Shown: positions 3,142 through 53,786 of the stretch, in pieces
Numbering within the stretch: position 1 is the stretch's first letter
Layout of the letters: each line of letters begins with the position of its first letter
Assembly: GCA_903851045.1 (NCBI GenBank)
Contig: CAINNF010000015.1
Span: 96,644-160,643, forward strand
Origin: Candidatus Adlerbacteria bacterium
GTDB lineage: Bacteria > Patescibacteriota > Minisyncoccia > Phycocordibacterales > SBAW01
Length of the DNA stretch: 64,000 bases
Reading direction: 5' to 3'
Notes under the pieces: generated by a model
The model's database searches: none
Seen by the model: the letters and a program-made list of their open reading frames with translations, nothing else
Told to the model about the DNA's origin: nothing
Program-made: the position numbers and the translations under genes

Positions 3142-3886
3142 CGCGGATCATTTGGATAGCTTCCTGTACCGTCGTCATGAATTGTGCGGGAAAGATGATG
3201 GTCGAATTCTTCTCGACCGAGATCTCCGCCATGGTCTGGAGCGTGCGCAGTTGAAGCGCGACCGGGTGCGCCGAAATAAGGTCCGCTGCCTCGCCGAGCT
3301 TCTGTGCTGCCTGCATCTCGCCTTCGGCGGCGACTATCTTGGCGCGACGCTCACGCTCGGCTTCGGCCTCCTTCGCCATCGCACGCTGCATGTTCTCTGG
3401 GAGCGTGATGTCTTTGATCTCCACCGCGGTTACCTGCGCCCCCCACGGCTCGGTGTGCTGGTCTATCACATCCTTGATCTGCGCATTGATCTTGCCGGTC
3501 TGCGACAAGAGTTCGTCGAGCATGAACTGGCCGACCACGTTGCGCACCGTCGTCTGACTGATCTGGTTGACCGCATCATACACGTTCTCGATAGCGATGA
3601 CCGACTTCTGTGGGTCGACGATCTTGTAGTATGCGACCGCCGCGATATCAATCGAGACGTTGTCTTTAGTGATAATCTTTTGCGACGGGATATTCATCGT
3701 GATGGTGCGCAGTGTCACCTTCGTCATCATCTCGAAGATCGGGATGAGAATAATCAGCCCCGGCCCCCGCACGCCCGTCACCTTGCCGAGAAAAAAGATC
3801 ACTCCACGGTCATACTCCTTCACCACGCGCAACGAAAACACCAGGAACAAAATAATAAGCCCCACGACGATTGGTAGCCATTCCAT
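3125..3886 (-). CDS. SPFH/Band-7 (stomatin/HflC-like) membrane protein
   Basis: N-terminal TM helix ([17 protein letters not shown]) followed by an SPFH core and a coiled-coil [12 protein letters not shown]. Overlaps the tspO start by 17 nt. The start could alternatively be at 3928. Confidence 0.8.
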
Positions 3887-3936
3887 ATGACACCAGTATA
3901 CCACCGCATTCGAAGCCTTCTTACCCATCAAAACCC

Positions 3937-3964
3937 CGGCACGTGTGCCGGGGTTTTGATGAGT
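3937..3964. terminator. bidirectional terminator (AAAACCCCGGCACGTGTGCCGGGGTTTT perfect palindrome)
   Basis: 14-bp perfect inverted repeat flanked by an A-run and a T-run. Confidence 0.7.
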
Positions 3965-3975
3965 GTATGAGAGAA

Positions 3976-5232
3976 TTACCAGTGCCAGCCGTGTCGCTTG
4001 ACGGGTGTCTGCACGGGAGGGGTGGGCGTCACTGGCTTGGTGACCTTCGACCACTTATCATCATCCTTGCGCCCAAAGAAGTCGAAGTGACCAGTAAAGA
4101 AGTTCTTCCAGTATCCGTACGCATGACCCTTGGGCGACTTGGTCGTCTTGCTCGTGCTCGAGGCGTTCGCGAAGTTGAGCACTCCTGTCGGGCTTGCCGA
4201 GCTCACTGTGACCGACGCATCCGAAGTGGTCTGCTGCCAGCTACCCATATTCACTTCCTCGACATAGTACGTGCCGAAGGCAAGGTTGGGGAAGGTATAC
4301 ACACCGCTTGCGTTCGTGGTTGCGGTCGCGACCACTGCTCCACTGTTTGAGGTGCCGCTGTACAGGTTGATAGTGAATCCTAAGATACCCGGCTCACCTG
4401 CGGTGAGCGCGTAGTCTTTATTGAGATCATTGAAGACCGTACCACTGATAGAGCCGGTGCCGGTCGGAGGAGTGACCGGTGTCGTGGTCACGGTGAGCAC
4501 TTCGCTCCCGCAGGTGCTCGTGGCGGCCGCATTTTGTGCGTCACCCGAGTAGACCACTTGCCAGTAGTACGTGCCAGCGGTGCCGAAGACCAACGAGCTT
4601 GAGTTCGGAACGGTCGCGTTCGCAACGGTTACGGTACCCGCATTCTGTACACCGAGGGTACACGCACTGTCGGTATAGACCTTGTAGTTGACCGTGCCGC
4701 CCGCAGTGTTGGTGACACCCGAGAGCGTCGCACCATCGAAGACACTGCTGCCGGTCAACACGCTCGACGCCGAAAGCGTGGTCGACACCGATACGCTCGA
4801 AGAGGTCGGCACCACCGCAACACACTGACTATCGGCGACCGTCGTGCTCGCATCTCCGTTGTAGTGGACAGTATACGAGAGTCCCGAAGCACCCAAGGTC
4901 GTTGTGGCAGACTGTGCCGACCCATTCACGAGCGCGACTCCCGACTGGGTCGTCGGTGTGCCCACACAGGTCGTATTGTTGAACAGGTTAAAATTGACGG
5001 TACCAGTGGGAGCCGTCGAAGCGGTCGATGACGCGACCGTCGTGCTCGCGCTCAAAGCGGTCCCGATAGGGGCCGTGGTGACGACCACATTACTGCCGTT
5101 GTGTACTGAAACCGTGACCGAGGGGCCGACGCTCGCGTGCGCGAAACTGGCGAGTGCCAGGCATCCACCGACCGCAAGTCCGGCGATACTAAGAAAGACC
5201 AAGAACGATGAGGCTCGATGACTTGTGTTCAT
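3976..5232 (-). CDS. secreted Ser/Thr-rich cell-surface protein with an SdrD/Cna B-type (carboxypeptidase-regulatory-like) fold domain
   Basis: Signal peptide, low-complexity Thr/Ser/Val tracts, and a [29 protein letters not shown]...[16 protein letters not shown] domain. Confidence 0.7.
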
Positions 5233-5362
5233 ATGAATAAGTAATTAATTATATATAGCTACGGATAATGGTTGATACACAGGAACGGTTCTTGCAGATA
5301 TGACGAGTGGCCTACCTCCTCCTTACCATCACACGATAGTGGAATAAACAATACGCTTGGCG

Positions 5363-5953
5363 TCAATTCCCCAGCATCGACCGAACAGCCTCCAGCCTAT
5401 CTCGCAATTCTTGTACCATAGGATCGTGTATCCGCTTCTCTACCACCCTTACCGCCTCATCATAGAACCACAGCTTCCCCTCTGGGGCATTAAAACGACA
5501 CCAGAACGCATCACCCTCGTCGGCGATCCCGTCCTCCATCGATAGCAAGTTATGGATCTTGTCGGCAATGGACACGAGCATCGACTCTTCCGGTGACGTT
5601 TCAAGATGCGCAAGATACTTCAGTTTACGCTCTTTCCAGCCGATCTTTTCATCAAGACCCGACATCGGATCCTTTTCTTCCGTCACCCCGCGGACGATAT
5701 CGAGCACCCGTGCTCCGAACGACTCCGCAATCAACAGCTCCTTTTCCGCATAGGGCAGCTTCACATCTTCGAGCACGTCGTGGAGCAGCGCCGCGATGAG
5801 GATGTCCTCGTCGCTCGTGTAGTGAGAAAGGATGCACATCACCGCAACAGGATGCATGATATACGGCGTCCGCATAGCATCCTTACGCACCTGTCCGTGG
5901 TGTAGTTGGGTCGCGAGCTTGAGCGCTTGATCGATGCGTTTCGTATATTGCAT
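5363..5953 (-). CDS. HD-domain phosphohydrolase ((p)ppGpp-hydrolase-like small HD protein)
   Basis: H..HD motif region HPVAVMCILSHYTSDEDILIAALLHDVLED. Confidence 0.7.
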   Translation of the reverse strand: MQYTKRIDQALKLATQLHHGQVRKDAMRTPYIMHPVAVMCILSHYTSDEDILIAALLHDVLEDVKLPYAEKELLIAESFGARVLDIVRGVTEEKDPMSGLDEKIGWKERKLKYLAHLETSPEESMLVSIADKIHNLLSMEDGIADEGDAFWCRFNAPEGKLWFYDEAVRVVEKRIHDPMVQELRDRLEAVRSMLGN

Positions 5954-5991
5954 AGGTTCGTTCGTTCAGTATATACGCAGCACACACCACC

Positions 5992-6897
5992 CTACAATCC
6001 GCATTCTGTCTTGAGCTCTTGGAGATCTTCGGTGCTGAGCGCGAGACTGGAACTTTGATTCACCGGACTCATGATCGAGTCAGGGTCGCTGTCGTGTGCA
6101 AGCCCAAGCGCATGCCCAAGCTCGTGCGCGATGACCCGGACGAACGCGGTCTTCGTGTCGAACTGATATATGTCGATCCTCCTTCCTTGTTCATCGGAGA
6201 TATACACCCCCTCTTCGAACTGGGTCCCGGCCAACCCGTCGGAGTTGAACGTCTGTACGTTCGCGTTCACCTGGTCGACCAGAGTATTGTAGTTGTCGAC
6301 CAGTGCGTTCGTCTCTTGCGCTAATTGGTTCACCGCTTGTCGCTTCGTTTCAAGAACGTTCTGCTCGGTCTGGAGCGCCTGTTTCTCTCCTGTTAGTGCC
6401 GCGTATTCGCTCTTCGACGCACCTCCTCGACCATTCGCTGCCTGTACACGGGCATTGTACGCATCTTGCGCCTGGGTGAACCGCGCAAGTTCGCTCGAAT
6501 ACGCCGACTGCGCGGCTTGGTACTTCGCTTGACTAGCCTGATACTGCGCCTTTGCTTGTGCGGCCGTCTGACTCTTCTCATTAATAGTCGTGCGCAGCTT
6601 ACTCTCTGCCTGTGTCGCCTGCTGTCGCGTGTCATAGACCAGGTTGATGGTCACCTCCCCCCTTGGGTCGTACACGAACAACGGCTTGTCTATGGCAGTG
6701 CTCCAGATGCCGCTCGCCTGATCGATATCGCTCAAGAACTGGCTCTGCGACACACCGAACCGAGGATCGATCGTGCCGATCTTATATGAAATGGGGGCCA
6801 CGCACGGACGGTGTGACTCGTGATACCAATATACATATACCGCGACCACCACAAGCAGAAGCAACCACCACACATCTTGTTTGTTGAAAAAACTCAT
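5992..6897 (-). CDS. membrane-anchored matrixin-like zinc metalloprotease (HExxHxxGxxH)
   Basis: N-terminal TM helix, Gln/Ala-rich coiled coil, C-terminal HELGHALGLAHDSDPDSIM zinc-binding motif with Met-turn. Confidence 0.75.
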   Translation of the reverse strand: MSFFNKQDVWWLLLLVVVAVYVYWYHESHRPCVAPISYKIGTIDPRFGVSQSQFLSDIDQASGIWSTAIDKPLFVYDPRGEVTINLVYDTRQQATQAESKLRTTINEKSQTAAQAKAQYQASQAKYQAAQSAYSSELARFTQAQDAYNARVQAANGRGGASKSEYAALTGEKQALQTEQNVLETKRQAVNQLAQETNALVDNYNTLVDQVNANVQTFNSDGLAGTQFEEGVYISDEQGRRIDIYQFDTKTAFVRVIAHELGHALGLAHDSDPDSIMSPVNQSSSLALSTEDLQELKTECGL

Positions 6898-6919
6898 ACG
6901 TCCCTATATTCTAGCGCGT

Positions 6920-7162
6920 CTATCGCTTCAGCATCGACCCGGTCTCGAACGCATTGCGTACCCACGAGATTTTGCCGACGTACGGCCCGAGTATACCGAG
7001 CGCGATGGTCGCAATGATAGCAGACCCGACAAAAAAGCCGACGCCGTACACCACCCCCACATAAAAGACGCGTTTGACAGAATTCTGTCGCGCGAGCTGG
7101 TTGTTCACACCCTCAAGAAGCTCGATGACCCGGTCCATTGGTGTACCTTCCTCACTATCCAT
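6920..7162 (-). CDS. small membrane protein (80 aa)
   Basis: ATG at 7160-7162. TM segment VFYVGVVYGVGFFVGSAIIATIALGILGPYV. Codon usage is consistent with its neighbours. Confidence 0.45.
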   Translation of the reverse strand: MDSEEGTPMDRVIELLEGVNNQLARQNSVKRVFYVGVVYGVGFFVGSAIIATIALGILGPYVGKISWVRNAFETGSMLKR

Positions 7163-7258
7163 GAGCCACAGTATAGCATCCTTGACACAGGCTTCTTTGA
7201 AAAAACCAGCTCCGGTGGTATGGTACCTGTGCGGGACGAATAACAGGAGTAGACCACG

Positions 7259-7480
7259 ATGCAGACCGATACTGTCGGTACAATCACTTCGATTTGGGAG
7301 ACTGGCCACAACGGTCCACCCATTGAACCATTGGACATACACCGCAGGGATAGCTTGATACGTCCTGGCCCTGCGGGCCGTTGCCGCTGTACACATTGCT
7401 CTGCAGGCGCATCCACGCGAATGATGCAGCTCGGAGCAGAAATAGCGAAAGAGATGGGATTGCTCACCAGACAAACCTAA
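7259..7480 (+). CDS. small ORF (73 aa) with strong SD and terminator; product unknown (could alternatively be an RNA)
   Basis: AGGAG sits 9 nt upstream of the ATG, and a rho-independent terminator follows immediately downstream. The translation itself is unremarkable. Confidence 0.3.
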   Translation: MQTDTVGTITSIWETGHNGPPIEPLDIHRRDSLIRPGPAGRCRCTHCSAGASTRMMQLGAEIAKEMGLLTRQT

Positions 7481-7494
7481 CGTTCCCACCTCAA

Positions 7495-7523
7495 GCCGCA
7501 GGACACGTCCTGCGGCTTTTTCA
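7495..7523 (+). terminator. rho-independent terminator (GCCGCAGGAC..GTCCTGCGGC + TTTTT)
   Basis: 10-bp GC stem followed by TTTTTC on the plus strand. Confidence 0.75.
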
Positions 7524-8045
7524 TTACTCCAGATCTTTGAGCGGAAGACCGTTGATGTAATCAGCTTTACCGACCGCAACACCATTCTTGCGCACGATAG
7601 CGTACGCAACGGTGACATGAAACAGGAAGTTCGGCACCGCATACTCCAACGCATATTCCGCTCCCGTCATGTACTTGCCGGGGAAATATGGCAGTGTCAC
7701 CCTTCTCTCGGCGGCACCTTCGAAATCTTTTTCGGTTGCCGTCTTGATGAACGCAAGAGTGTCGTCGATACGTGTCTGGAGCGCAGCGAACGTTGTTTCA
7801 GTATCCTGCATCACGACGTTCTCTCTGTTCGTGAGACGAACTATCGCACCTTTCGCGTTATCACATGCGACCTGAACCTGCTTCTTCAGAGGAAACATAT
7901 CCGGTGCGAGCGCATCGTTCAAAAACACCTCCTCGCTGATACCAACCTCCTTCGCGCGACGCTCAGCCTTCATGAGCACCCCCTTAAGCCCACCGAGCAT
8001 CTTCGTGAATAGAGGCACGGTGACCACATATGTCGTATGTTGCAT
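7524..8045 (-). CDS. DUF1993-family helical-bundle protein
   Basis: N-terminus MQHTTYVVTVPLFTKMLGGLKGVLMKAE is typical of DUF1993 proteins. Confidence 0.5.
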   Translation of the reverse strand: MQHTTYVVTVPLFTKMLGGLKGVLMKAERRAKEVGISEEVFLNDALAPDMFPLKKQVQVACDNAKGAIVRLTNRENVVMQDTETTFAALQTRIDDTLAFIKTATEKDFEGAAERRVTLPYFPGKYMTGAEYALEYAVPNFLFHVTVAYAIVRKNGVAVGKADYINGLPLKDLE

Positions 8046-10800: not shown

Positions 10801-12333
10801 TTATACGAAACCAGGGAAGAAGTCACTCTTGATCTTTAGTCGGGAGACTCCCATGCCCGTGAGCGTCTGTTTGAACGCTTCGACCATCGCATGCGGTCCG
10901 GATATGTAGTACGTGCGTTCGAGGTAGTCGGGTATCTCCTGCTGGATAAGCGCCGCGTCGAGCGAATGGTTGAACATCCCTGGTATCGGCTTGGTCTCAC
11001 CGCTGAGCGCGTAGACGGTCTTGATACCGAGCTCGGTCTGCGCGCGATCGAGAATGGGTTTGTAGGCGACATCCGCGGCGGTCTTGTTCGCATAGAGTAC
11101 GACGACCGGGCGCGCGTCTTTGGTGTCGAGCAAGTACTGGATCATGCTGCGAAACGGCGTCATACCGATACCGCCCGCGATGAACACCAGTTTCTTCTTC
11201 GGGTCCTTCGGCAGCACGAAGCCACCCGCGATGTGCGACGCCGCTATCGTGCTCCCCACCTTCATCGAAGCGAGCGCACGCTTGAAGGTGCTCGACGGCG
11301 AATAGAACTTCACCCCGAGCCGCACCTGCCGCTCCGTCGGTGCGGACGCTATCGTGAAGTAGCGACGATTCCCGCGGTTGTCCGGGTACTGATGCCCAAG
11401 CGTCCACTCCATGTACTGCCCCGGCCGGAACGTCATGCGACGATCGGCATTGAAGACGAAGTCGTACACATCGTTCGCCTGTTGTTCGATGGCGGCAAGG
11501 GTCAGGATGTATCGACCCTTCGGACTTACGGCCCACGAGAACACGTTACCGACCAAGAGCGCCAACTCCGGCGTCATATAGAAGGTGCCGATGTGGATAT
11601 TGGGAGCGAAGAGGAACCCGACAATCGCACCGTATGCGACGCGCAGCAGCATGGTCGGTGGTGTCGTGAGCGGCTCCGTGAGCATCACGAACGCAAGAAA
11701 GAATATCGACGTATGCAACACCGGCACGAGAGGAGTGACGATGTCGGTCGGGAACCCGGATGACGACATAAGCTCCGTCGTCACCAGCGTGACCGCGAAG
11801 AAACTGCCGACCAAGTCGAAGCGACGGATCTTGCGCACCAAGAGCAGCCCACCGACGATCACGAACGGCATCAGATAGGTGTTACCGCCCACCCACCAGG
11901 TCGCTGGCTGGTTGATGACAAGTGCCGTGAGCGCGACCGCGAACGCGGCCGGATTGAACAGATGCTTCTTGCCTATCGCAAAGATGTACTTCGCCGCCAT
12001 CGCCCACACCGAAGCGAACACAAGGAAGCCGACACCCGCATGGTCCGTGGCAGACACTGGTGTGATGATGAGTGCGAGAATGAGCGCCGTGATATAGACC
12101 GATTCGACGTTCGTCGCCGCCTCGAACACCCGCGCGAACACAAGGTTCGTACCCCAACACACCGCAAGGATGACAAGAGCCGAGAACGCAAGCTGCGTCG
12201 CATCGAACGGGACCAGGTTGGCGAAGAACCCAAGCACGAACGCCACCACGAGTAGACCCACCAAGTAGTACAGTACGAGACGGTACATGGTGATACGATT
12301 CAAAAAAGTGTCGATGGAGGTCATGGGGTTCAT
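10801..12333 (-). CDS. NqrB/RnfD-like polytopic membrane domain fused to FNR-like FAD/NAD(P)H oxidoreductase domain
   Basis: The N-terminal ~300 aa are multi-TM and include LFNPAAFA (NqrB/RnfD-like). The C-terminal part has RRYFTIAS (RxYS FAD-binding) and GGIGMTPF (NAD-binding). Start and stop overlap apbE (ATGA). Confidence 0.8.
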   Translation of the reverse strand: MNPMTSIDTFLNRITMYRLVLYYLVGLLVVAFVLGFFANLVPFDATQLAFSALVILAVCWGTNLVFARVFEAATNVESVYITALILALIITPVSATDHAGVGFLVFASVWAMAAKYIFAIGKKHLFNPAAFAVALTALVINQPATWWVGGNTYLMPFVIVGGLLLVRKIRRFDLVGSFFAVTLVTTELMSSSGFPTDIVTPLVPVLHTSIFFLAFVMLTEPLTTPPTMLLRVAYGAIVGFLFAPNIHIGTFYMTPELALLVGNVFSWAVSPKGRYILTLAAIEQQANDVYDFVFNADRRMTFRPGQYMEWTLGHQYPDNRGNRRYFTIASAPTERQVRLGVKFYSPSSTFKRALASMKVGSTIAASHIAGGFVLPKDPKKKLVFIAGGIGMTPFRSMIQYLLDTKDARPVVVLYANKTAADVAYKPILDRAQTELGIKTVYALSGETKPIPGMFNHSLDAALIQQEIPDYLERTYYISGPHAMVEAFKQTLTGMGVSRLKIKSDFFPGFV

Positions 12334-13067
12334 AGCGTCAGTTGGGTAAATCCGGTGGTCATCGTGGCGATACCGTGCGCATCGATCGCATAGCCTTCGA
12401 ACCCGGGGAGCTGCTCGATGAAAAAGATGCCGTCCCTACCCATCGCGAACGCCGCGGTCGCGAAACGATCTGCTTCGTAGATGTCGGGGCCGACGACCGT
12501 CAGACTCACGACTTCGGTGAGCGCTGTCCCGGGCACGTGTGGATTATAGATATGCTGACCGCGAACGTATGTGCCGGAGGTCGCTACCCCGCGGCCGCCC
12601 GGTCGTACCACCTTGACAATCTCCTGATGTTTGAACGGGTTTCGAATACCGATGGTCCACGGCTCACCGCGCTCGTCGACGCCCTTCGTCTGGATGTCGC
12701 CGCCCACCTCGACGTAGTAATGGTCGAACCCACGCGACTCCACGAGCTTCGCCGCTTGCCATATCGCCCACCCCTTCACCACACCCGAGGGGTCGATATG
12801 GCCGTCGGGCCGGACGATGGAGAAAAATCCTGCAGTCTCCCTGGTCGTCTGCTCAGCGAGCGCGAATATCTCGCGCATTTCATCGCTGTAATCTGCCGCC
12901 CCTATATCGCCGCGATCTATCTTCGATATCTCGCTGTCTTCCTTGTAGGTACTAAAACGCGCGTCGATCGCGGTAAAATAGTCGAACACCGCGTCGAGCG
13001 TATCGCTGGTAGCCGTTGGTATGTCCACGATGACCGGCATGCCCATGATGATACGCGTGTCTCTCAT
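12330..13067 (-). CDS. apbE: ApbE-family FAD:protein FMN transferase (flavin transferase)
   Basis: Contains VKGWAIWQAAKLV, TSGTYVRGQHIYNP and EADRFATAAFAMG (ApbE motifs). The ATG at 13065-13067 lies 1 nt after the stop of the FMN-binding gene. An alternative upstream start (M19) is possible. Confidence 0.8.
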   Translation of the reverse strand: MRDTRIIMGMPVIVDIPTATSDTLDAVFDYFTAIDARFSTYKEDSEISKIDRGDIGAADYSDEMREIFALAEQTTRETAGFFSIVRPDGHIDPSGVVKGWAIWQAAKLVESRGFDHYYVEVGGDIQTKGVDERGEPWTIGIRNPFKHQEIVKVVRPGGRGVATSGTYVRGQHIYNPHVPGTALTEVVSLTVVGPDIYEADRFATAAFAMGRDGIFFIEQLPGFEGYAIDAHGIATMTTGFTQLTL

Positions 13068-20942: not shown

Positions 20943-21013
20943 GTCACATGGAGGGTATCGTTTTTACGCAAGCATTTTTGGAATATGCTTTTATTGCATA
21001 ATGCTTTCACCCC

Positions 21014-21048
21014 TCCCGCGAAACATCCCCCCGCAGCTCGATAGCTCC
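21014..21048. repeat. 35-bp direct repeat, copy A (TCCCGCGAAACATCCCCCCGCAGCTCGATAGCTCC)
   Basis: 34 of 35 positions are identical to copy B at 22606-22640. Together they bracket the purC-purE fusion gene. Confidence 0.8.
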
Positions 21049-21093
21049 CTTCGGGTCGACTTCTACATACTATCAACGTAGACACAAGACGAA

Positions 21094-21149: not shown

Positions 21150-22481
21150 TCAGTGAGCGCCCTCCAGCCGATCTTCCAGCTTCCCTGCCAGGAGGCTGTA
21201 GAAGAACGGATTGCGCGTGGCGAGAATCTGCAGAGCCGCCAAGAGTGCGTTCCCGGGACTGAGCACAGTGCTCACCGGGACGCCGCTCGGCATCCGCAAC
21301 GAAGACCAGACATCCTCAGAGAAACTGCCGACGGTTGCAGGAACCGTGATAACCGGAGCGACCGACGCAGCCGACAACAGAGGCCCGGCAGCGTTGCTCA
21401 TGCCGACGTACGCGATAACCACCGAGCTTGGCACCTCTTGGAGCATCCGCCGAAGGGTCGCGAGCGCCCGCTCCGGTTCCTTGTGGGCGGAGCAAGTTAC
21501 GATCGGCATAACGAAGTTCTGAGGCAACAATGCACCAAGCGCTTCACACGCCCTATGGAACACCTCAACATCGTCCGACTCCGACCCACGCCACAGAATG
21601 ATCCTCTGGCGAGGAAGGTGGAATCGGTCGGTGAGTTCGGCAACCAGCCGATACTTGGCGAGCACGTCATCAAGTGCACCACCATCGCGGTAAGCTTGCT
21701 TGTCGATGTACGCGCCGTTATCGAGAACGCGCCATGAATCATTATCGATGACGTCGGCAAGAAGCAAAGCGCCGCCCGAAGTAAGACCGAACTCCACCTT
21801 AAAGTCGACGAGAGTGCGGCCTTCAAGTTGCCACGCTTTCTCCAACACGAGGAATGCCTGACGAGCAATGCGAGCCATCTTGTCGAAGAGCGCAGCTTCG
21901 TTATCGACAGTAAAGACTTCCGCGTCGCTGAGCACGAGGAACGGCTTCGCGCCATGGATCGGCTTCGCGGGGTCGTACAGGCAGATCCTCGGCTCGTCGG
22001 CGTTTGGATCATAGATCATGAGCGGATCGTCGCACGGCAATGCACATTCGCCCCAACGCTTACCGTTCGTCTTAAGATAGAACTCGACGACAAGTCGCGG
22101 GAAGAGGTGACCCTTGGAGATGTGCGGATGTCGCTTAAGAAAGGACCCGTGCGCCTCGCGCCGGACCACCACTTCGTACGGGAGCATGTCGCAAAGGTGT
22201 GCGACGAACGACGTTGGGTCGCGCTGAAGTATGTACGCGACCGGAAGGCCGCACGCACTCAACAGTCGAAATACGTTGGAGGTCGTTCGAGTCGCGAGCG
22301 CCGCCTTGCCCGACAGGATGTCGTGCTTAGCACCATCACCCGCAGTGATATCGTCTTTTGCGGCGAGGACTCCTAGACCAGGCCGTCCTTTGACCGCAAA
22401 AACTCGCTTGGTCTTACCTTCGGCGAGCAGCTCGCCGTTCGGATAGGCGAAGATGAGATCATCGGCTGTCTGATTATTCAT
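21150..22481 (-). CDS. bifunctional SAICAR synthetase (PurC) / AIR carboxylase-mutase (PurE-class) fusion, PAICS/ADE2-like architecture
   Basis: N-terminal half: GKTKRVF, DDITAGDGAK, VDFKVEFGL (PurC). C-terminal half: RIILWRGSESD, AYVGMSNAAGPLLSAASVAPVITVPATVGSF, MPSGVPVSTVLSPGNALLAALQILA (PurE). ATG at 22479-22481. Confidence 0.8.
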   Translation of the reverse strand: MNNQTADDLIFAYPNGELLAEGKTKRVFAVKGRPGLGVLAAKDDITAGDGAKHDILSGKAALATRTTSNVFRLLSACGLPVAYILQRDPTSFVAHLCDMLPYEVVVRREAHGSFLKRHPHISKGHLFPRLVVEFYLKTNGKRWGECALPCDDPLMIYDPNADEPRICLYDPAKPIHGAKPFLVLSDAEVFTVDNEAALFDKMARIARQAFLVLEKAWQLEGRTLVDFKVEFGLTSGGALLLADVIDNDSWRVLDNGAYIDKQAYRDGGALDDVLAKYRLVAELTDRFHLPRQRIILWRGSESDDVEVFHRACEALGALLPQNFVMPIVTCSAHKEPERALATLRRMLQEVPSSVVIAYVGMSNAAGPLLSAASVAPVITVPATVGSFSEDVWSSLRMPSGVPVSTVLSPGNALLAALQILATRNPFFYSLLAGKLEDRLEGAH

Positions 22482-22605
22482 CACCATTCCCCTTTCGTGG
22501 GATATGTGGTTGATCGAAAGAAACAAGTCCAAAAATACCCTACTCGAAAAACAGAGGCTTCGCAACAACACTAAAGGCGCTCACCAAATAGTTGCACCTT
22601 AACCT

Positions 22606-22640
22606 TCCCGCGAAACATCTCCCCGCAGCTCGATAGCTCC
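22606..22640. repeat. 35-bp direct repeat, copy B (TCCCGCGAAACATCTCCCCGCAGCTCGATAGCTCC)
   Basis: See copy A. Lies in the divergent region upstream of the purC-purE gene. Confidence 0.8.
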
Positions 22641-22736
22641 GTTCTTGGCCTGGCATACATGGTCGTCGCAGGTGTCTTTACATACAATAATAAATATGTT
22701 ACATAAGTACTGGCAACCTGTTCTGGGAGAACAACC

Positions 22737-23357
22737 ATGCGTTTTGTGTTCGGTACGCGTTTTGCGTTGTGGATCGTTGTGTGGGCAGCGATCACCATCA
22801 CCTTGACCACTTGGGTTACCGCTTTGCTTATCGCGTGGGGTTTGGACGATACTCAGTCTGTCCTCGACCCGAGTGCGCACCTGTACGTCCTGCGCCAGTT
22901 TGTCTGGTGTATGGAGCTGTTCGCCTATGGCTCAATGGGGTGGAATGCGCTCGCAGGCGGTTACCTGATGCTCATGGTGCTTGGCATGCTGCTGGTTGGC
23001 GACCTTGGCATTCAGTTCGGGCTCTTCAAGAATGAGCTCGGCGAGATCGACAAGGTGCAAAACCGCGTTCTGCACTACTGCACCGTTCTCTTCCTCATCC
23101 AGGCCTACATCGGCGTCGGGAGCTGGATGATTCTGTACTTCATCAGCGAGCCCAGCGCTCACCTGGCGTCGATGACCCTGATTGAGGGCTCGAGGAGGCT
23201 GTTGTTTACGATTGGTGCACCCGTCCTCGTGATCATGAGCGGTCTGTACATGATGGATTTCCTGGGCAAGCAGTACATCATCGGCACCGCACCCCCGCGC
23301 TGGCTCCCCTCCCCCGAGCTTCGCGCCCGCATGCGCCGCTTCGGCCTGGGGCAGTAA
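22737..23357 (+). CDS. polytopic membrane protein (hypothetical)
   Basis: SD GGGAGAA. 5-6 TM helices. Terminator hairpins at 23383-23420. Confidence 0.55.
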   Translation: MRFVFGTRFALWIVVWAAITITLTTWVTALLIAWGLDDTQSVLDPSAHLYVLRQFVWCMELFAYGSMGWNALAGGYLMLMVLGMLLVGDLGIQFGLFKNELGEIDKVQNRVLHYCTVLFLIQAYIGVGSWMILYFISEPSAHLASMTLIEGSRRLLFTIGAPVLVIMSGLYMMDFLGKQYIIGTAPPRWLPSPELRARMRRFGLGQ

Positions 23358-23469
23358 TCCCAACCCCCGCCTCGTGCAAAGACTCGACACAAAGTCCTTG
23401 CACCAGCGGGGACTTTTTTATATGAAGTTCGTTCAACTAACGCAGTCAGACTACGTTAGTTCCAAGAAG

Positions 23470-25248
23470 CTAGAGCGTTTCGATAATTTTTGAAAGTAGC
23501 TGAGTTATACGCACTTTTGTTGTGTCAGAAAAATTACTCAATTTTATTTTCTCTTCATTGACTCCTATCATAAAATCTCTAGCGACAATAACTTTAGATA
23601 GCTTTGCAGCTTTCATAAACTCAGAATTTGTCGTAGCCTCATGGTTAGCATTATTTGATTTGAGGACAACATGATTAAACTCATCTCGAGAAAAAAGATC
23701 TTCAATTCCTTGGCAACCGTCGATCTTTATAAGTTTTTTCTCCTCACAGACCATGGAATCCTTTAGCTCTTTAAGAACTTTTCGTCCATGAGGTTCATCA
23801 TCAAGCACAATTGAAAAACTAAGCCCCCAACCGAGCATGAGATTTGCCAACAAAGGGAGATTCGCGCATCCGGTAGCTGGCAAAAAATTGACAGTCTCAC
23901 TTTTTGAACAAAGTTTCCAAAAAGCTTTAAAATAAAAAAACGCTGATATCTCTTCCAACAAAACATTATTACTTCTAGAAATCACAGTCTGATGAGATAC
24001 GTCTATCCCCATGTTTGTGTAGAGAGGCATCAAAGTGTCCATAGAGGCGCTTCCGAGGTCTTGAAAAGGAATAATTCTTGTCTCACTTTTTTCATCCTCA
24101 GTATCTGTTCGCTCAATTGCCAAGATACGATAGACCTTATCCATATCCAGCAAATACGGAGAATGGGTCGTGAAAATTATTTGAAGATTTTTCCTTTGCT
24201 TCTCAAACACCCTAAGGATATCCTCCTGCGCTTTGGCGTGTAGATTAGCTCCCGGTTCGTCTATCAAGAAAACCCTGCCTCCCCCTCTCCTCGCAGAAGC
24301 CTCAAGTTTTAAATAAAACGAAATAAACCATTTAACCCCCTTGCTTCGCTGGGCTGGAGACTGGCGCCCATTCTTATCCCTAATCCAAAATATAAGGTAT
24401 GGTTGTCCGGGTTTACCTAACTCTGAACTCTTGTGGTATTTTAACTCCAAGACGATCTCTATTTTGTCTTTCTTCCCAACCGTCTGGTGCCAATATTTTT
24501 GCAATTCAACATTTACCTTTTTACTTTGCACTTCGAGAAAGTCATCAATGAGGCGGACACTCGAAGGATTCAATAGATCCTCTATCTTTACGTCAGCTAT
24601 ATATAGAAAATTCTTTGCACCCTCATAGCCTAGAGCTTTTGTGTTTTTCTTCACTAAATCATCGAGATCAATTGTGGGAGGGAGTAAGCTGTCTTCTTTA
24701 AATATGTCTATACTTGGCAAACTATTAAATAATTCATCCACAAAATCACTTTCCTTTATTAAAACAAGTCTTTCGACTCGCTCAGAGATTTCTTCTAGAC
24801 TTTGGGTGGTGGTGTTATTTCCAACCTGGCTCTTTTCAGCCTCGGCAAAATTCTGCCACACACCTCTTAACTCTTCGTTCTCTAGAACCAACTCACCACC
24901 CTCGTAGTTGCCTGACTCCCATACCCTTTTCAAAGCAATACACTTTCCAATTTTCTCAAAGACTTTTTTGAAATTTTTAGGTAATTCTTTACCTTCAGAT
25001 AAACACTCTTGGAGTTCTTCGAGACTATCGAACTTAAAAATACAGGTAACTTCTGGCATTAAACCAGTGCTCCGAATATCATCTTGGTATACGTCCCCGG
25101 TTTCAAAGGCATGGATACCATCCAATACCGAAGATTTTCCTGACTCGTTTTGTCCAACAATAAGCGAAATCCCATCTGGTGACAAATCCTGAAATCCAGT
25201 ATCAATAATTGATCGAAAGTTTTGAATCCTGAATGCTTGTAATCGCAT
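23470..25248 (-). CDS. OLD-family endonuclease-like protein: N-terminal ABC-type ATPase (AAA_15/21-like) + C-terminal TOPRIM-like domain; AT-rich island
   Basis: N-terminus MRLQAFRIQNFRSI; Walker A GQNESGKSS; Walker B/D-loop RVFLIDEPGANLH; H-loop IIFTTHSP. C-terminal VLLEEISAF and IVLDDEPHG are TOPRIM-like E and DxD motifs. GC is about 40%, against about 56% in the flanks. Confidence 0.8.
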   Translation of the reverse strand: MRLQAFRIQNFRSIIDTGFQDLSPDGISLIVGQNESGKSSVLDGIHAFETGDVYQDDIRSTGLMPEVTCIFKFDSLEELQECLSEGKELPKNFKKVFEKIGKCIALKRVWESGNYEGGELVLENEELRGVWQNFAEAEKSQVGNNTTTQSLEEISERVERLVLIKESDFVDELFNSLPSIDIFKEDSLLPPTIDLDDLVKKNTKALGYEGAKNFLYIADVKIEDLLNPSSVRLIDDFLEVQSKKVNVELQKYWHQTVGKKDKIEIVLELKYHKSSELGKPGQPYLIFWIRDKNGRQSPAQRSKGVKWFISFYLKLEASARRGGGRVFLIDEPGANLHAKAQEDILRVFEKQRKNLQIIFTTHSPYLLDMDKVYRILAIERTDTEDEKSETRIIPFQDLGSASMDTLMPLYTNMGIDVSHQTVISRSNNVLLEEISAFFYFKAFWKLCSKSETVNFLPATGCANLPLLANLMLGWGLSFSIVLDDEPHGRKVLKELKDSMVCEEKKLIKIDGCQGIEDLFSRDEFNHVVLKSNNANHEATTNSEFMKAAKLSKVIVARDFMIGVNEEKIKLSNFSDTTKVRITQLLSKIIETL

Positions 25249-25298
25249 AATGGTACAAATCTACCACATTCCTTTAAATAAAATAGCAACAAGACATA

Positions 25299-25964
25299 TT
25301 ACTTCGGATTTTTGATGAGCCCGACCACTTTGCCGCTGATGGAGAAGTCATCGTCTTCGTGGATATAAATGGGCTCGTAGTCGAGGGAGGACTCGGCTTT
25401 GAGGACTATTTGGTCGTTTTCTTTTCGGTCGTCTATGTAGCGCTTGATGGTGGCTTTGTTGTCGACCAAGGCTAGGACTATGTCGCCGGTTGAGGCAGTG
25501 CGGCTTTCGCTGTCGACTATGACATAGTCGCCGTCGTCGATGCACTTCTCGCCCACCTTCGCGCGGTTCATGGAGAGGCCGTCGGTTTTGATGGCGTAGA
25601 GGCCGCGCGGGCGGGAGCGGCCGACGAGGCGGCTGGAGACGCGGAGGAAGCCTTGGAAGTTCGCCTCCGCGAAGATAGTCGCGGGGCCGCAGTTGGCGGT
25701 GCCTATGACGGGGATAGAGAACATGCTCGTTTTGTTTTCAAGCAAGCCCTTGGACCATGTCGGCGTCGTGGCGGCGCGGGTCATCACGCCTTTGGCGCGG
25801 TCGAGCGTGACGAAGCCTTTTTTCTCGAGCTGGAGAAGGTGGTGTTTGATCTTCTGCGGAGCCTCCTGGGGGGCGCCTATGAGCCGCGCGACATCACGAA
25901 GCGAGAGCTTCGCTAAATTTTCGCTACGGGAGAGCTCGAGTATTTTCTCTTGGATCTCGTGCAT
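25299..25964 (-). CDS. lexA: LexA-like repressor (N-terminal LexA wHTH + C-terminal S24 peptidase)
   Basis: IQEKILELS...HLLQLEKKGFVTL is a LexA DNA-binding domain. GLSMNRA (Ser) and KRY (Lys) form the S24 catalytic dyad. It is 50 nt upstream of the OLD gene on the same strand. Confidence 0.8.
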   Translation of the reverse strand: MHEIQEKILELSRSENLAKLSLRDVARLIGAPQEAPQKIKHHLLQLEKKGFVTLDRAKGVMTRAATTPTWSKGLLENKTSMFSIPVIGTANCGPATIFAEANFQGFLRVSSRLVGRSRPRGLYAIKTDGLSMNRAKVGEKCIDDGDYVIVDSESRTASTGDIVLALVDNKATIKRYIDDRKENDQIVLKAESSLDYEPIYIHEDDDFSISGKVVGLIKNPK

Positions 25965-26379
25965 ACAAAGAAGTGTACCACAGCGAAGTTATACAGCAAG
26001 TACTGTACATACGACTTGACGTTCTTTACACCCTTGCTACGATTAAAGAGTTCTCGGGACCATTAGTCTCCTCGCGAGAAGTCGAGTCGCGAGCGCGAGG
26101 ACCAACACATGACACGCATGCCATCGAGCAAGCGAGGGGCGAAGGGCACACCCCACCACGTGGTGACCGGCAGGCCAACCACCGCACAGTACGCAGCGCT
26201 CCACCCGGAGAAGGTGCAGTGGGTGAAGCAGGCACGGCAAGGGGCCGGGGCGTTAGACTAGGTGCACCGGTGCAAGAGCGAAAAGAAAAGTACACGAGAG
26301 GGACCCGCGCGAGGAGGTGAACACTCACCTATTCACGCGGGTTTTCTATATATCACTGACAGGTGGACAAAGGAAAAGC

Positions 26380-26400
26380 CCATGCCGATGCATGGGCCAA
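26380..26400 (-). terminator. rho-independent terminator (GCCCATGC-atcg-GCATGGGC + TTTTCCTTT on minus strand)
   Basis: Follows the stop of the IMPase-family gene on the minus strand. Confidence 0.65.
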
Positions 26401-26416
26401 GGGGTCATAGAAAGGT

Positions 26417-49291: not shown

Positions 49292-49305
49292 GCCTCTATT
49301 CTACG

Positions 49306-49758
49306 CTACAGAGGGATCTGTTCTATGGAGCCGTGCAATATCGTGGGCTGCATACCGAGAATCTCTTCCTTGAAGGGTGACTGCGCGGGCAAGTCGTTTA
49401 GAATATAGATCTTTTTCCCAGTAGCGAATGCATACCCCATCTCTAGGAAGCCGTTCGCGCCGATGTAGTTGGGCTGGCCTTTCTTCTCCCAGTTCGTGAT
49501 GAGCACCGCGTCGCTCGCGTCGATCTTTGCAAAATGTGTTAGGATCGCGCTCCCCTTCTTCTTCCATACGTCATGTTCGGGCGGGAAGGCATCGGCGCCT
49601 CCCTGCTGACCCACGAACTTCCCGACCGAAACACCATCTCCCGCGACCTCCAACTCAAGTGTCGGGGCAAGGACGGTATGACCCATCACCTCTAACGTCT
49701 GTTGCAGTTCGAGAAACTCAGTATAAAAAGCCATCGACGAGCAGATGCAGATCTTCAT
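49306..49758 (-). CDS. nucleoside 2-deoxyribosyltransferase-like (Rossmann-like) protein
   Basis: N-terminus MKICICSSMAF (like MKIYLAGP...) and C-terminal ANGFLEMGYAFATGKKIYIL, a pattern resembling NDT. Confidence 0.5.
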   Translation of the reverse strand: MKICICSSMAFYTEFLELQQTLEVMGHTVLAPTLELEVAGDGVSVGKFVGQQGGADAFPPEHDVWKKKGSAILTHFAKIDASDAVLITNWEKKGQPNYIGANGFLEMGYAFATGKKIYILNDLPAQSPFKEEILGMQPTILHGSIEQIPL

Positions 49759-49808
49759 GGGAGCCAGTATACCAGCAAAAAGCGTAGTGCTACGATCATA
49801 CTTCCACG

Positions 49809-50069
49809 TTACCAGATCCCCGGGCCATCTCCATCGAGATACCACAAGCCGTCGATCAATACTATTTTGATGGTCTGCCCATTCGCAACAACGCAGTCGC
49901 CGTACGTATCCGTCTTGTCTACCAGCCGCACACACCCACGAAACGCGTAATACCGCTCGAAGGTCGTGTGCGCGAGGTGTGTGGTATAGACCTGGTACAC
50001 CAACACCACTCCCGCAACCAGCAACAAGAGACCAACTTCCCACAAAGTTTTGTGTTTGTGTATTACCAT
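49809..50069 (-). CDS. small membrane-anchored protein (86 aa)
   Basis: ATG at 50067-50069. TM helix LWEVGLLLLVAGVVLVY. Confidence 0.4.
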   Translation of the reverse strand: MVIHKHKTLWEVGLLLLVAGVVLVYQVYTTHLAHTTFERYYAFRGCVRLVDKTDTYGDCVVANGQTIKIVLIDGLWYLDGDGPGIW

Positions 50070-50600
50070 ACATTCTATAGAACTGCGCTGAGGCACATAA
50101 GTCACCCTTGAGTATCTCTTTCCATATCCCACCCTCACACATCGCACTACTTTTATAACACCAAAGAGTTGGCTAGTGGACGCAAGATAATCTTTCGAAA
50201 ACAGTACCAATATGCAGACAAAGTACGAAAAACGAACCTCCATGTGGGAACTGTGGGGATCAAAGATAAAGAGAATTCACGCAGATACGTAGAAGCCAAA
50301 GACACCTTTATGACCCACTACACCCAACACGTGTCCCGCGACCACTAAGGAATATGTAGAAAAAGAAATGCCGCTTAGAATATAAGCGGCAAGGGTGGTT
50401 TGAGCTTGTCCAGTATTTTCCCCGAGGCACCACCAGGGAATTGTTGAACGATCACCGCCAGCAGTGGCCACCCAAGAAGGGTCGCGTCATTGTCCAAAAA
50501 CTACTCTTGGACCCCACGCCCACCTGACGTTCAGAGCTTAAGCCCGTATGATTGCCCAAACCATCCATATCTAATCACACTCCAACAAAAACACAAACAT

Positions 50601-50630
50601 GGAAATTGGGGAGGCGTCCAATTGATTACG
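50601..50630. repeat. partial tandem copy of MITE left end (GGAAATTGGGGAGGCGTCCAATTGATTACG)
   Basis: Exact duplicate of the first 30 bp of the adjacent element. Confidence 0.8.
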
Positions 50631-50640
50631 TGGAAATTGA

Positions 50641-50778
50641 AATTGGGGAGGCGTCCAATTGATTACGATTTACTGTGGTCTAATGGTAATCTCCATCCGC
50701 TATGTTAATCAATGTAGCATAGCAGGAACCAATTACCACACCACACGATTTTCAAATTAAACGGACGCCTCCCCATTA
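50641..50778. mobile_element. MITE-like 138-bp element, copy 1, with 12-bp terminal inverted repeats GGGGAGGCGTCC...GGACGCCTCCCC
   Basis: About 140 bp identical to copy 2 at 53614-53753. No coding capacity. Intergenic. Confidence 0.75.
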
Positions 50779-50860
50779 TTCCATTATTCAGGAAAGGAAA
50801 GAAAGGAAAAGGCCACGGTTACTTGATTAACCGTGGCCCAGTATCGCCGGAGCGTGTCGG

Positions 50861-51943: not shown

Positions 51944-52047
51944 CTCCTTAGTGCAGCGTTTTTAAGGGCGATAGTACCCAAAAACATAATATCACACTCT
52001 AAATACATATGTCAACAGGTTGTCGGGGAACATAATTTCCAGATCAA

Positions 52048-52716
52048 CTAGACGGCTCCGTAAGCTTCCGATGAAAGCGCCCCGAGATAGTCCCACAGTT
52101 TGGTGATACTTTTTTCTCTCGTCCAAAAGTTCAGGATCTTCTCACGAATGTCCTGATGCTGCGGATAGCCTTCGTCGTATGCTCCCTCGGGCATCAGATC
52201 TTTACACTCCACATTAAGCAGGACGGTGAGCGACTCTTTGAGATCATTATACTTGAGCGCTCCCAGTCGCTGCTCTTCGTCTGGGCCCAGACCATACCAT
52301 GTGTAGAAATGCCACAGCTCATGCATCGCTATCTTGCGTGGATAGAACACCGGCACCGTAACGAAGAAAAAATCGTTCTTGATGTTGTATGGGCGGCGGT
52401 TGTTGACCGTGAGATACGCATGTATGTCACGAGGAAGAGATACGCCAAAAAGAGCCTCCGCCCGTTGTTGGTACTCCCCCGCAACCGTGTCCCAGTCCTG
52501 TTGGTACTTGCGTATGTGTTCCTGAACATCGATACCCTTTTCGGCGATATACGCACGAACGAAACCCTCGACCATCTCGAGTGTCGGATCCTCGCCGCAG
52601 CGTGCCACCAACTGCTCATACACCCGAGTCGGCACCGAGGAGTTGTTCGAACTCTTCCCCTTGTTCAGGAGACACCACACATCCTTTCCTTCATCGTATG
52701 CAAAAATGACTTTCAT
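52048..52716 (-). CDS. hypothetical protein with HExxH motif (putative metallopeptidase-like)
   Basis: ATG at 52714-52716 with AGGAAA SD. IAMHELWHFYTWYG contains HExxH. Confidence 0.5.
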   Translation of the reverse strand: MKVIFAYDEGKDVWCLLNKGKSSNNSSVPTRVYEQLVARCGEDPTLEMVEGFVRAYIAEKGIDVQEHIRKYQQDWDTVAGEYQQRAEALFGVSLPRDIHAYLTVNNRRPYNIKNDFFFVTVPVFYPRKIAMHELWHFYTWYGLGPDEEQRLGALKYNDLKESLTVLLNVECKDLMPEGAYDEGYPQHQDIREKILNFWTREKSITKLWDYLGALSSEAYGAV

Positions 52717-52802
52717 GTTTTTTCCTAACAATATCTGGCAACATCAGAAATGAAGGAACCTATAGCCTACTGGGACTTTGGCACAAAGATCTCATGTAGA
52801 CC

Positions 52803-53381: not shown

Positions 53382-53390
53382 GGTCTGGAG

Positions 53391-53591: not shown

Positions 53592-53613
53592 TCTCCAAAT
53601 TTAGGAAAATTGG

Positions 53614-53753: not shown

Positions 53754-53786
53754 CCCATTACCCATTACTGGACACCTCCCCGTTAC

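Follow-up and report, generated by a model that had tools for sequence, protein, structure and literature searches.

A diverged OLD-family gene behind lexA in a Candidatus Adlerbacteria genome and the variable cargo at the same site in other bacteria of the candidate phyla radiation

The locus and its lexA gene

We analyzed a stretch of 64,000 nucleotides from a Candidatus Adlerbacteria genome (assembly GCA_903851045.1, contig CAINNF010000015.1, positions 96,644 to 160,643 of the forward strand; hereafter the window), which belongs to the candidate phyla radiation (CPR), with a focus on a gene of the OLD nuclease family that lies directly behind lexA. Two co-oriented genes of the minus strand form the core of the locus. 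The first is lexA (25299..25964), which encodes 221 amino acids with a LexA-type winged helix-turn-helix and an S24 autopeptidase domain, and the second, after a spacer of 50 nt, is the OLD-family gene (23470..25248), a single gene of the Class 1 type that encodes 592 amino acids and was recognized from its open reading frame (ORF), its homologs and an AlphaFold (AF2) model. An earlier sequence-only reading had given the same positions, co-orientation and spacer, and all of these stand. On the other side of the OLD gene, a 206-amino-acid membrane-protein ORF (22737..23357, plus strand) runs convergently as the right-hand neighbour; it has host GC content, returned no match in a Pfam search and has a terminator-like hairpin at 23391-23416. 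The genes within 10 kb on either side, as annotated on an identical contig, encode a K+ transporter, a phosphatase, DUF2779, BacA, two NUDIX proteins, CSD, IMPase, LexA, the OLD protein, the membrane protein, a PurC-PurE fusion, a CxxCxxCC protein, an NTPase and DnaJ, and the neighbours of the pair are housekeeping genes. The identical locus is present in two further assemblies, on contigs of 77 kb and 33 kb.

The OLD gene stands out by its composition. Compared with the 57 non-overlapping ORFs of at least 150 amino acids in the window (mean GC 0.562, standard deviation 0.040), it has a GC content of 0.39 (z=-5.3) and a GC at third codon positions (GC3) of 0.372 (z=-3.3), the lowest of the window ORFs. 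This matches the roughly 40% against 56% estimated earlier. Along the gene the GC content is 0.37-0.44, compared with 0.56-0.62 in both flanks, and lexA itself is host-like (GC 0.581, GC3 0.783). Public gene calls start the OLD protein at M64, which yields 529 amino acids and removes 63 residues including the Walker A motif. The 592-amino-acid ORF is the correct one because the full N-terminus is conserved in homologs, and automated annotation of this subfamily is unreliable.

The product of the upstream gene matches Peptidase_S24 (1e-19), and the catalytic dyad that had been read from its sequence, S131 (DGLSMN) and K174 (IKRY), is invariant. It scores 84.3 bits against the TIGR00498 lexA model and does not reach the equivalog cutoff of 110.95, which fits a diverged CPR orthologue. 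We detected 2290 LexA homologs (CPR) at E up to 1e-10, with more than 100 clusters at 63-91% identity; several are named 'repressor LexA' in their source, and PF01726 (LexA_DNA_bind) is recorded for several. The recognition helix PQKIKHHLLQL, Cys92-Gly93, Ser131 and Lys174 are invariant in the family, which thus has the LexA-type winged helix, the S24 Ser/Lys dyad and the internal cleavage site of a LexA. The cleavage-site position of the CPR proteins holds an invariant Cys-Gly (NC-GP), as in UmuD, instead of Ala-Gly, and the recognition helix is fully invariant across lineages of 27% to 60% GC.

The GC content of lexA follows that of the host locus in every genome examined, and a survey of 2.9 million viral contigs gave only a single full-length relative (39% identity). 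Because of this host-tracking composition and near-absence from viral contigs we regard the gene as a cellular LexA orthologue, and the possibility that it is a phage CI was rejected on the viral count. The OLD gene is absent from approximately 100 other lexA loci, so lexA is not its travelling partner, and no S24 gene occurs in the four contexts of OLD homologs that were examined; on these two grounds lexA and OLD were rejected as a conserved pair.

The OLD-family protein

The N-terminal part of the 592-amino-acid protein (approximately residues 1-400, 24049..25248, minus strand) is an ABC/SMC-type ATPase region with a helical insertion, identified by Pfam and PADLOC models and by invariant residues. 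Over residues 1-368 Pfam gives AAA_15 (3e-19, residues 1-366), AAA_21 (9e-17) and SMC_N, and the PADLOC ATPase models that match this part are AbiLi, AriA, Old, GajA and PtuA. All motifs quoted in the sequence-only reading are present, namely GQNESGKSS (residues 32-40), RVFLIDEPGANLH (324-337) and IIFTTHSP (357-364) in the ATPase region and VLLEEISAF (429-437) and IVLDDEPHG (480-488) in the C-terminal region, and an alignment of 35 homologs shows their key residues to be invariant. In the ATPase the invariant residues are G32, Q33, N34, E35, G37, K38, D330, E331, H337, T361 and H362. These include the Walker A Lys (K38), the Walker B Asp-Glu (D330-E331) and the D-loop and H-loop His (H337 and H362) of the OLD family, whose counterparts in TsOLD, K34, E276, H283 and H310, are essential (PMC7049728).

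The C-terminal part (residues 417-592, 23473..24000, minus strand) is an OLD-type Toprim core with a helical bundle. A structure model was needed for this assignment, because sequence profiles of the C-terminal part alone are insufficient. The AF2 model of the full-length protein (pLDDT 87.3, pTM 0.86) has its best Foldseek matches in TsOLD (PDB 6P74, 3.5e-16) and Gabija GajA, within a range of 3.5e-16 to 2e-14, and the structural neighbours of the C-terminal domain, BpOLD, TsOLD, GajA and the OLD protein of retron Ec67, identify its fold as an OLD-type Toprim. AriB, the DUF4435-type Toprim protein of PARIS, is not among the top 60 neighbours of this domain. A profile of the full-length family also matches TsOLD (6P74, E=2.4e-12, profile positions 323-524, from the ATPase onward), and this alignment places LLEE on LVEG (E377) and DDD on DED (D431/D433). 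E432, D483 and E485 are thereby equivalent to TsOLD E377, D431 and D433, the experimentally defined metal-A ligands (PMC7049728), and the profile alignment locates both the Toprim Glu and the DxD of this site. E432 and D483 are invariant, and residue 485 is E in the window protein and D in most homologs. The C-terminal residues that are invariant in the 35 homologs (E432, E433, D483, D484, E516, D517 and K552) may fit a two-metal Toprim site with a general-acid or stabilising Lys, for which E433, E516, D517 and K552 are the candidate metal-B ligands and catalytic Lys.

No UvrD/GajB-like helicase, reverse transcriptase or AriB is encoded within 10 kb on either side according to Pfam annotations of the identical contig, and Rfam detects only one tRNA over the 64 kb and no retron non-coding RNA (msr-msd). 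The four OLD-homolog contexts have no common partner gene; they contain large serine recombinases (three of the four), GmrSD, a restriction-modification (RM) system, a transposase and HEPN. OLD proteins are classified by context (PMC10568477), and the gene is assigned to Class 1 because it is single and lacks GajB, a reverse transcriptase or non-coding RNA, and AriB. The view that it is a stand-alone gene and not a canonical Gabija system is thus upheld, with no adjacent GajB-like helicase in the 10-kb flanks or in the four homolog contexts.

The gene represents a large and diverged subfamily centred on CPR bacteria. At E up to 1e-3 it comprises at least 592 proteins, which are full-length and 40-70% identical, and the few members with taxonomic names come mostly from CPR lineages. 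Compared with the loci in which they lie, members are rich in AT (a GC content of 0.43 against 0.63 in one case and of 0.41 against 0.57 in another), so the gene behaves as mobile DNA, and distant relatives are found in nine viral contigs. Since standard profiles miss the Toprim domain of these proteins, defence-finder tools probably under-count the subfamily.

The protein resembles the Class 1 OLD proteins P2 Old, TsOLD, Vc OLD and E. coli YbjD in its Walker A and B motifs, its D-loop and H-loop His and its metal-A Glu with a DxD-type motif (PMC7049728, PMC10568477, PMC12392090, PMC13261556). Its length is also close to that of P2 Old, in which catalytic residues are found as far as K550. Unlike in these proteins, the Toprim domain is missed by the sequence profiles of Pfam, PADLOC and the PDB, the motifs are EE and DD(D/E) instead of E-x3-D/E and DxD, and the subfamily is CPR-centred. 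Identity to TsOLD in the Foldseek structural alignments is only 10-14%, and TsOLD does not have the C-terminal helical bundle with the invariant K552; the best structural match of this bundle is the C-terminal region of the Class 2 protein BpOLD, which is closer than TsOLD. Class 1 OLD genes have been described as not located near other defence genes (PMC10568477), whereas homologs of the window protein adjoin RM genes, GmrSD and recombinases. Gabija GajA, also of Class 2, has the same two-domain architecture, is a top structural match, and one PADLOC GajA model covers residues 319-589, but no GajB/UvrD-like helicase is adjacent to the gene here or in the four homolog contexts.

Metal-dependent DNase or nickase activity, ATP hydrolysis and protection from phage are known for P2 Old, TsOLD and Vc OLD (PMC7049728, PMC12392090). 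By homology to these proteins, ATP binding or hydrolysis by a dimer would control a two-metal Toprim nuclease, which would nick or degrade DNA and so block phage replication. ATPase and nuclease activity and an anti-phage role are thus predicted for the window protein, and we regard it as a new, strongly diverged member of the known OLD family that is most likely anti-phage.

The cargo slot behind lexA

The sequence-only reading had treated the adjacency to lexA as incidental. We consider it the most interesting feature of the locus, as the 3' flank of lexA is a hypervariable cargo slot. Three contigs (L118, L119 and L120) encode a LexA in the 90%-identity cluster of the window LexA. L118 has the same BacA-CSD-lexA synteny as the window, with a slot that contains a small membrane ORF and an unannotated 245-amino-acid protein (GC 0.36), and both L119 and L120 carry a RhuM-family gene 39 nt after lexA. 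Near-identical LexA proteins are therefore paired with three different cargos (OLD, RhuM and the 245-amino-acid gene), and the 206-amino-acid membrane-protein gene at 22737-23357 is absent from all three contigs. Nucleotide homology of the three contigs to the window (blastn, 88-91%) stops with the second base of the lexA stop codon, at position 25300. The different cargo in close relatives favours recent acquisition, and the horizontal origin that had been proposed for the OLD gene is borne out by its GC deviation, its AT-rich homologs and its absence from the relatives with a LexA of at least 90% identity.

The AT-rich inserted cassette extends from the lexA stop codon to a hairpin (23463..25298, minus strand) and is delimited by the homology breakpoint, the step in GC content and the sharing of the hairpin. 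The hairpin GAACTAACGTAGTCTGACTGCGTTAGTTG (29 bp, 23434..23462, minus strand) forms the distal edge of the slot and has a 12-bp stem, a 3-nt loop and no T-tract, with a minimum free energy of -15.7 kcal/mol. It is identical in L118 (29/29), and in both loci it stands directly 3' of the stop codon of the cargo, the two cargos being unrelated. The hairpin is single-copy in the window, occurs among 120 loci only in L001 and L118, so that the other 118 lack it, and has no match in viral contigs. We interpret it as the distal edge that the slot had ancestrally in the window lineage; a role as a widespread attC-like cassette end was rejected because of this restriction to one lineage and the lack of viral matches.

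The RhuM cassette has a different boundary. The RhuM gene is directly followed by 82 bp that repeat the lexA 3' end in frame (L119 3895-3975, L120 1810-1890) and are 84% identical to the resident lexA end; lexA-derived direct repeats thus flank the cassette in two independent samples. This repeat is the signature of an integration that took place by recombination inside the 3' end of lexA. Such repeats were rejected as a general att signature, since they occur only at the RhuM element of L119 and L120.

We surveyed the slot in 13 species-representative genomes, three further contexts and 80 metagenome loci picked by LexA similarity alone. ORFs of at least 100 amino acids that start no more than 1 kb downstream of lexA were counted as cargo, which gave 66 unique loci. 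The 66 cargo ORFs fall into 58 unrelated sequence clusters, and 51 of them are co-oriented with lexA. The median spacer between lexA and cargo is 60 nt, and half of the 52 co-oriented cases, the window included, have a spacer of 60 nt or less. Compared with distant genes, the cargo has a slightly but significantly lower GC content (Mann-Whitney p=0.003). Matches to Pfam and PADLOC among the cargo comprise SMODS cyclases of CBASS (four), SAVED-HNH, Shedu SduA_C, T5orf172, Dam with HNH, type I and IIG RM proteins, metallo-beta-lactamase (MBL) proteins (PDC-M48B/RTasMBL), an LmuA-like protein, NYN, a trypsin-like protein, RmuC, a DrmC-like nuclease, PDC-M30A, Bro-N/PDC-S13 and RhuM. As controls we used 66 genes located more than 3.5 kb from lexA at the same loci. 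These are mainly housekeeping genes (SmpB, EF-Tu, IF-2, a tRNA synthetase, G6PD, MraW and YceG) with few mobile or defence genes, each PADLOC family listed being represented by one protein. Against these controls, the slot is enriched in CBASS, Shedu, RM, MBL, NYN and candidate defence families. Upstream synteny is kept while the cargo differs between L020 and L022 and between L004 and L007. The site thus combines a conserved anchor with non-homologous and often defence-type content, as defence hotspots do, and we found no description of this arrangement behind lexA in the searchable literature.

Several individual loci contain further genes of note. In L004 an HNH-SAVED effector and a SMODS cyclase (CBASS) lie directly downstream of lexA (10879-13004), and L011 has a transmembrane protein and SMODS at lexA (6515-8019). 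In L023 a ubiquitin-like Bil-type cluster (Multi_ubiq, Prok-E2, ThiF and BubE) is divergent from lexA (3400-7600). A small divergent gene, a DNA methyltransferase of the N6_N4 type (approximately 430 amino acids) and a protein of approximately 140 amino acids form a block upstream of lexA in L004, L007, L020 and L022; it recurs at 48-81% LexA identity to the window LexA, and the downstream cargo differs.

Core defence hotspots exist in Pseudomonas and E. coli. Others at fixed positions are P2 old/tin and those of P4 (Rousset et al. 2022, as cited in PMC10568477). The slot resembles defence hotspots in its conserved anchor gene, its sharply bounded variable segment with a strain-specific defence system and its AT-rich cargo. 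It differs in that the anchor is a chromosomal SOS repressor gene in CPR bacteria and the cargo usually consists of one or two genes, co-oriented and tightly spaced, and the window has no prophage or satellite backbone and no integrase. Integron cassettes similarly bring diverse single-gene cargos to one promoter-proximal site, and the window and L118 have a hairpin (CTAAC...GTTAG) at the cassette end. This resemblance is superficial: there is no IntI integrase and no attC array, the hairpin is lineage-restricted and the cargo has its own candidate promoter.

Expression, alternative explanations and further features

An extended -10-like element, TGGTAGATT (25258..25266, minus strand), lies 9 nt before the ATG of the OLD gene and is a candidate cassette promoter. 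OLD homologs in the unrelated contexts L017 and L019 have TGGTAGAGT and TGTTAGATT 10 nt before their ATG, and the cassette thus seems to come with a putative extended -10 promoter of its own. The lexA promoter region (25972..26018, minus strand) contains an extended -10 element, TGGTACACT (25972-25980), a -35 element, TTGCTG (25994-25999), and two nested palindromes, TACAG-N6-CTGTA (25992-26007) and CAAGT-N12-ACTTG (25997-26018). Neither palindrome has a second perfect match in the 64 kb; both are kept in L118 and L119 and not in L020, L022 and L023. A divergent promoter-like site, TTGACG-16-TACGAT (26016..26043, plus strand), has as its -35 the family-wide GTCAAG block, which is present in 76 of 88 lexA upstream regions. 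The upstream architecture of lexA throughout the family is TGTCAAGT-N7-ACTT...TTGAC, and at most CPR loci lexA has TGnTAnAnT approximately 7 nt before its ATG.

No Shine-Dalgarno sequence was found at lexA or OLD, including none at a useful distance for OLD. Given this and the extended -10 elements that end 7-9 nt before the ATG, the mRNAs of both genes look leaderless. The spacer contains no terminator-like site, which makes read-through from lexA into OLD possible. A search of the 50-nt spacer for a LexA box had been proposed as a check; none of the dyads or motifs of the lexA promoter occurs there. OLD would thus be expressed from its own extended -10 as a leaderless mRNA, to which read-through from the lexA promoter could add, and SOS control of OLD is a hypothetical possibility, from which the cassette's own -10, the narrow conservation of the palindromes and the motif-free spacer point away. 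De novo dyad and k-mer analysis yielded TGTCAAGT and AAGT-N7-ACTT as a candidate LexA operator of the whole family. We do not claim this operator, because the dyad coincides with two back-to-back divergent -35 boxes and TACAG-N6-CTGTA is not kept in L020, L022 and L023. No genes of a LexA regulon were identified.

The 450-nt gap upstream of lexA (25965-26416) contains an ORF of 50 amino acids (26109-26261, plus strand) that is conserved in L118 (82%) and L119 (96%), and its C-terminal motif Y-A-x-x-[NH]-P-x-K-V-x-W-V-K is common to a 75-amino-acid ORF in L007. A block, GGAGACTAATGGTCCCGAG, upstream of lexA is conserved even in L020 and L022. A structured RNA was considered for this gap and rejected; Rfam gave no family there, either at gathering thresholds or with E values up to 1. 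The divergent promoter, the 5' region and the conserved 50-amino-acid ORF account better for the conserved stretch, and the element could be an SOS-controlled small protein, perhaps SulA- or YneA-like, or a 5' leader.

The explanation that we favour, with a probability of about 0.72 as a whole, is that the OLD gene arrived horizontally as a 1.8-kb AT-rich cassette between the lexA stop codon and the 29-bp hairpin, that its product is a diverged Class 1-type OLD protein made up of an ABC/SMC-like ATPase with an inserted helical domain, a Toprim domain and a helical bundle, and that the 3' site of lexA in CPR bacteria is a hypervariable cargo slot in which the downstream gene is swapped even between close relatives and is frequently a defence gene. 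Several observations weigh against parts of this explanation. The sequence-only reading had proposed profile searches of both halves of the protein as a check; the ATPase was recovered (AAA_15, 3e-19), but the C-terminal part alone gave no match in Pfam or PADLOC at E up to 10, and a profile of this part had no real match among PDB sequences, so that the Toprim domain is supported through the full-length profile and the structure model. Foldseek with the domain in isolation gives no significant match (the best E, 0.014, is to lumazine synthase), with TsOLD and GajA having the top TM-scores (0.45-0.47) and the top probabilities. The motif of the window protein is D-D-E and not D-x-D, and the alignment of the hidden Markov model stops before TsOLD S478, E480 and R487, which leaves the metal-B ligands and the Lys/Arg unplaced. 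Furthermore, not all OLD-family proteins are defensive, as illustrated by archaeal Cran1 (PMC12796447). With respect to the slot, the defence enrichment is semi-quantitative, as PADLOC includes generic and candidate (PDC) families, exact counts per protein cover only part of the 66 loci and ORFs were called naively. Among approximately 90 loci, one element has the direct repeat derived from the 3' end of lexA, which leaves a general insertion mechanism unsupported, and the window contains no recombinase, including no homolog of the three cargo-associated serine recombinases.

The slot may serve SOS-gated immunity or be a neutral recombination hotspot on a conserved gene. A neutral hotspot, where conserved lexA would serve as a one-sided homology anchor or att site and defence genes would merely be the most-transferred accessory genes, is quite plausible, though we place it short of even odds. 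It is consistent with the unusual conservation of LexA (protein identity of 63-91% over many CPR lineages, nucleotide identity of 88-91% between close relatives), the breakpoints exactly at the gene end, the 82-bp lexA 3' repeat that flanks the RhuM element, the heterogeneous right-hand boundaries of the slot, the presence of non-defence cargo (MscL, a DEAD helicase, MutS and glycosidases) and the candidate promoter of OLD itself, but it leaves the tight spacing and the co-orientation unexplained. In an alternative, the cargo would mainly be read through from a LexA-autoregulated promoter and induced by DNA damage or by RecA that phage has activated, and the slot would be selected for this inducibility. 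Downstream genes are found behind lexA in E. coli lexA-dinF and in the lexA2-imuA-imuB-dnaE2 mutagenesis cassette, and lambda cI-rexAB is an S24 repressor gene followed by co-transcribed defence genes; the likeness is to an S24 repressor gene with accessory genes behind it, but those genes are fixed partners, whereas here they are interchangeable and co-transcription is hypothetical. The 50-nt spacer without a terminator, the co-orientation of 51 of the 66 cargos with half of the 52 co-oriented spacers at 60 nt or less, and the intact self-cleavage apparatus of LexA favour such an operon, and DdaA is a precedent for a DNA-damage regulator that controls defence genes (PMC12392091). Nevertheless we consider it doubtful: the nested palindromes do not extend beyond the closest relatives and the dyad seen across the family may simply be a pair of back-to-back -35 boxes, the spacer lacks these motifs and OLD is preceded by a conserved extended -10 that belongs to the cassette, no Shine-Dalgarno sequence stands at a useful distance for translation after read-through, and a co-orientation of about 75% is near the usual bacterial background.

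The remaining alternatives concern the nature of the two genes. A role of the OLD protein outside defence, as an ATPase-nuclease of repair, replication or the cell cycle that was recruited beside lexA for the damage response, has a housekeeping precedent within the OLD family in archaeal Cran1 (PMC12796447), and it would accord with the position next to lexA and with RmuC and MutS among the slot cargos. We consider it unlikely in view of the foreign composition and patchy distribution of the gene, its absence from close relatives and the presence of homologs beside recombinases, RM genes, GmrSD and transposases and in viral contigs. Even less probable is a different OLD-related system, either a fused PARIS (AriA-AriB, Class 4), an AbiL-type system or a decayed Gabija or retron remnant. 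The best PADLOC matches of the ATPase are indeed AbiLi (7e-24) and AriA (2.5e-22), and an AriAB fusion model matches at 9e-16, but they reflect the shared ATPase only and the AriAB match is confined to residues 306-388. PARIS and AbiL (AbiLi/AbiLii) consist of two genes or of a fusion with a DUF4435-type Toprim, whereas the gene here has no partner and its C-terminal domain groups with BpOLD, TsOLD, GajA and retron Ec67 OLD, AriB being outside the top 60. GajB, a reverse transcriptase and msr-msd were not found nearby, and the ORF is intact, its full length being conserved by hundreds of homologs. Finally, the LexA-like protein could be a repressor of a mobile element (CI- or SetR-like) that travels with OLD as its effector, given that S24 repressors head immunity regions with defence genes, as in lambda cI-rexAB, and that some lexA loci lie near conjugation or recombinase genes. 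This idea is already largely refuted and hardly credible: lexA, unlike OLD, has host-like GC and GC3, OLD occurs at none of the approximately 100 lexA loci and S24 genes in none of the four OLD contexts, near-identical LexA proteins are found with three cargos and a sharp breakpoint at the stop codon, the N-terminal domain is a LexA-type winged helix-turn-helix (PF01726 in homologs) and not HTH_3, and the LexA family is almost absent from viral contigs.

Returning to the cassette and slot explanation, the OLD gene adds to the least understood OLD class, as phenotypes in Class 1 are available only for P2 Old, Vc OLD and YbjD (PMC10568477, PMC12392090, PMC13261556). CPR bacteria have tiny genomes and poorly charted immunity, and a fixed position after lexA would serve the mining of metagenomes for immunity genes through guilt by position. 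A more speculative proposal, which we consider possible but not probable, is that CPR bacteria use the 3' end of lexA as a dedicated site at which exchangeable immunity cassettes (OLD, CBASS, Shedu, RM, Lamassu-like, MBL, RhuM and many genes of unknown type) dock and are expressed. Transcribed together with the autoregulated SOS repressor, they would stay at a low level without stress and be induced upon RecA activation by phage attack or DNA damage. If so, this would be a minimal SOS-gated and swappable defence slot suited to tiny genomes, and the dozens of unannotated slot genes, such as those for the 245-amino-acid protein of L118, the 182-amino-acid protein of L014 and the 420-amino-acid protein of L085, would be candidate new defence genes. 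Coupling of cargo expression to lexA would amount to a simple natural form of damage-inducible immunity and would connect the SOS response with anti-phage defence in a new way.

Two further features of the window were observed. The ORF of 473 amino acids at 21150-22571 (minus strand) encodes an SAICAR synthetase (PurC) fused to an AIR carboxylase (PurE) and is bracketed by a direct repeat of 40-47 bp, GGAGCTATCGAGCTGCGGGG(A/G)GATGTTTCGCGGGA, at 22606-22652 and 21013-21052. This repeat is 95% identical to positions 7206-7252 of L118, just past the lexA slot at the start of a short ORF (MKKKGGVVIYQAKNGAIELRGDVSRE), and may be a repeated regulatory or recombination element or the remnant of a gene. 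A second patch of low GC content (0.47-0.52), at approximately 49300-56050, comprises five ORFs of 200-278 amino acids without a Pfam match and adjoins the only tRNA gene of the window, tRNA-Gln (56092-56165); it may be another acquired island.

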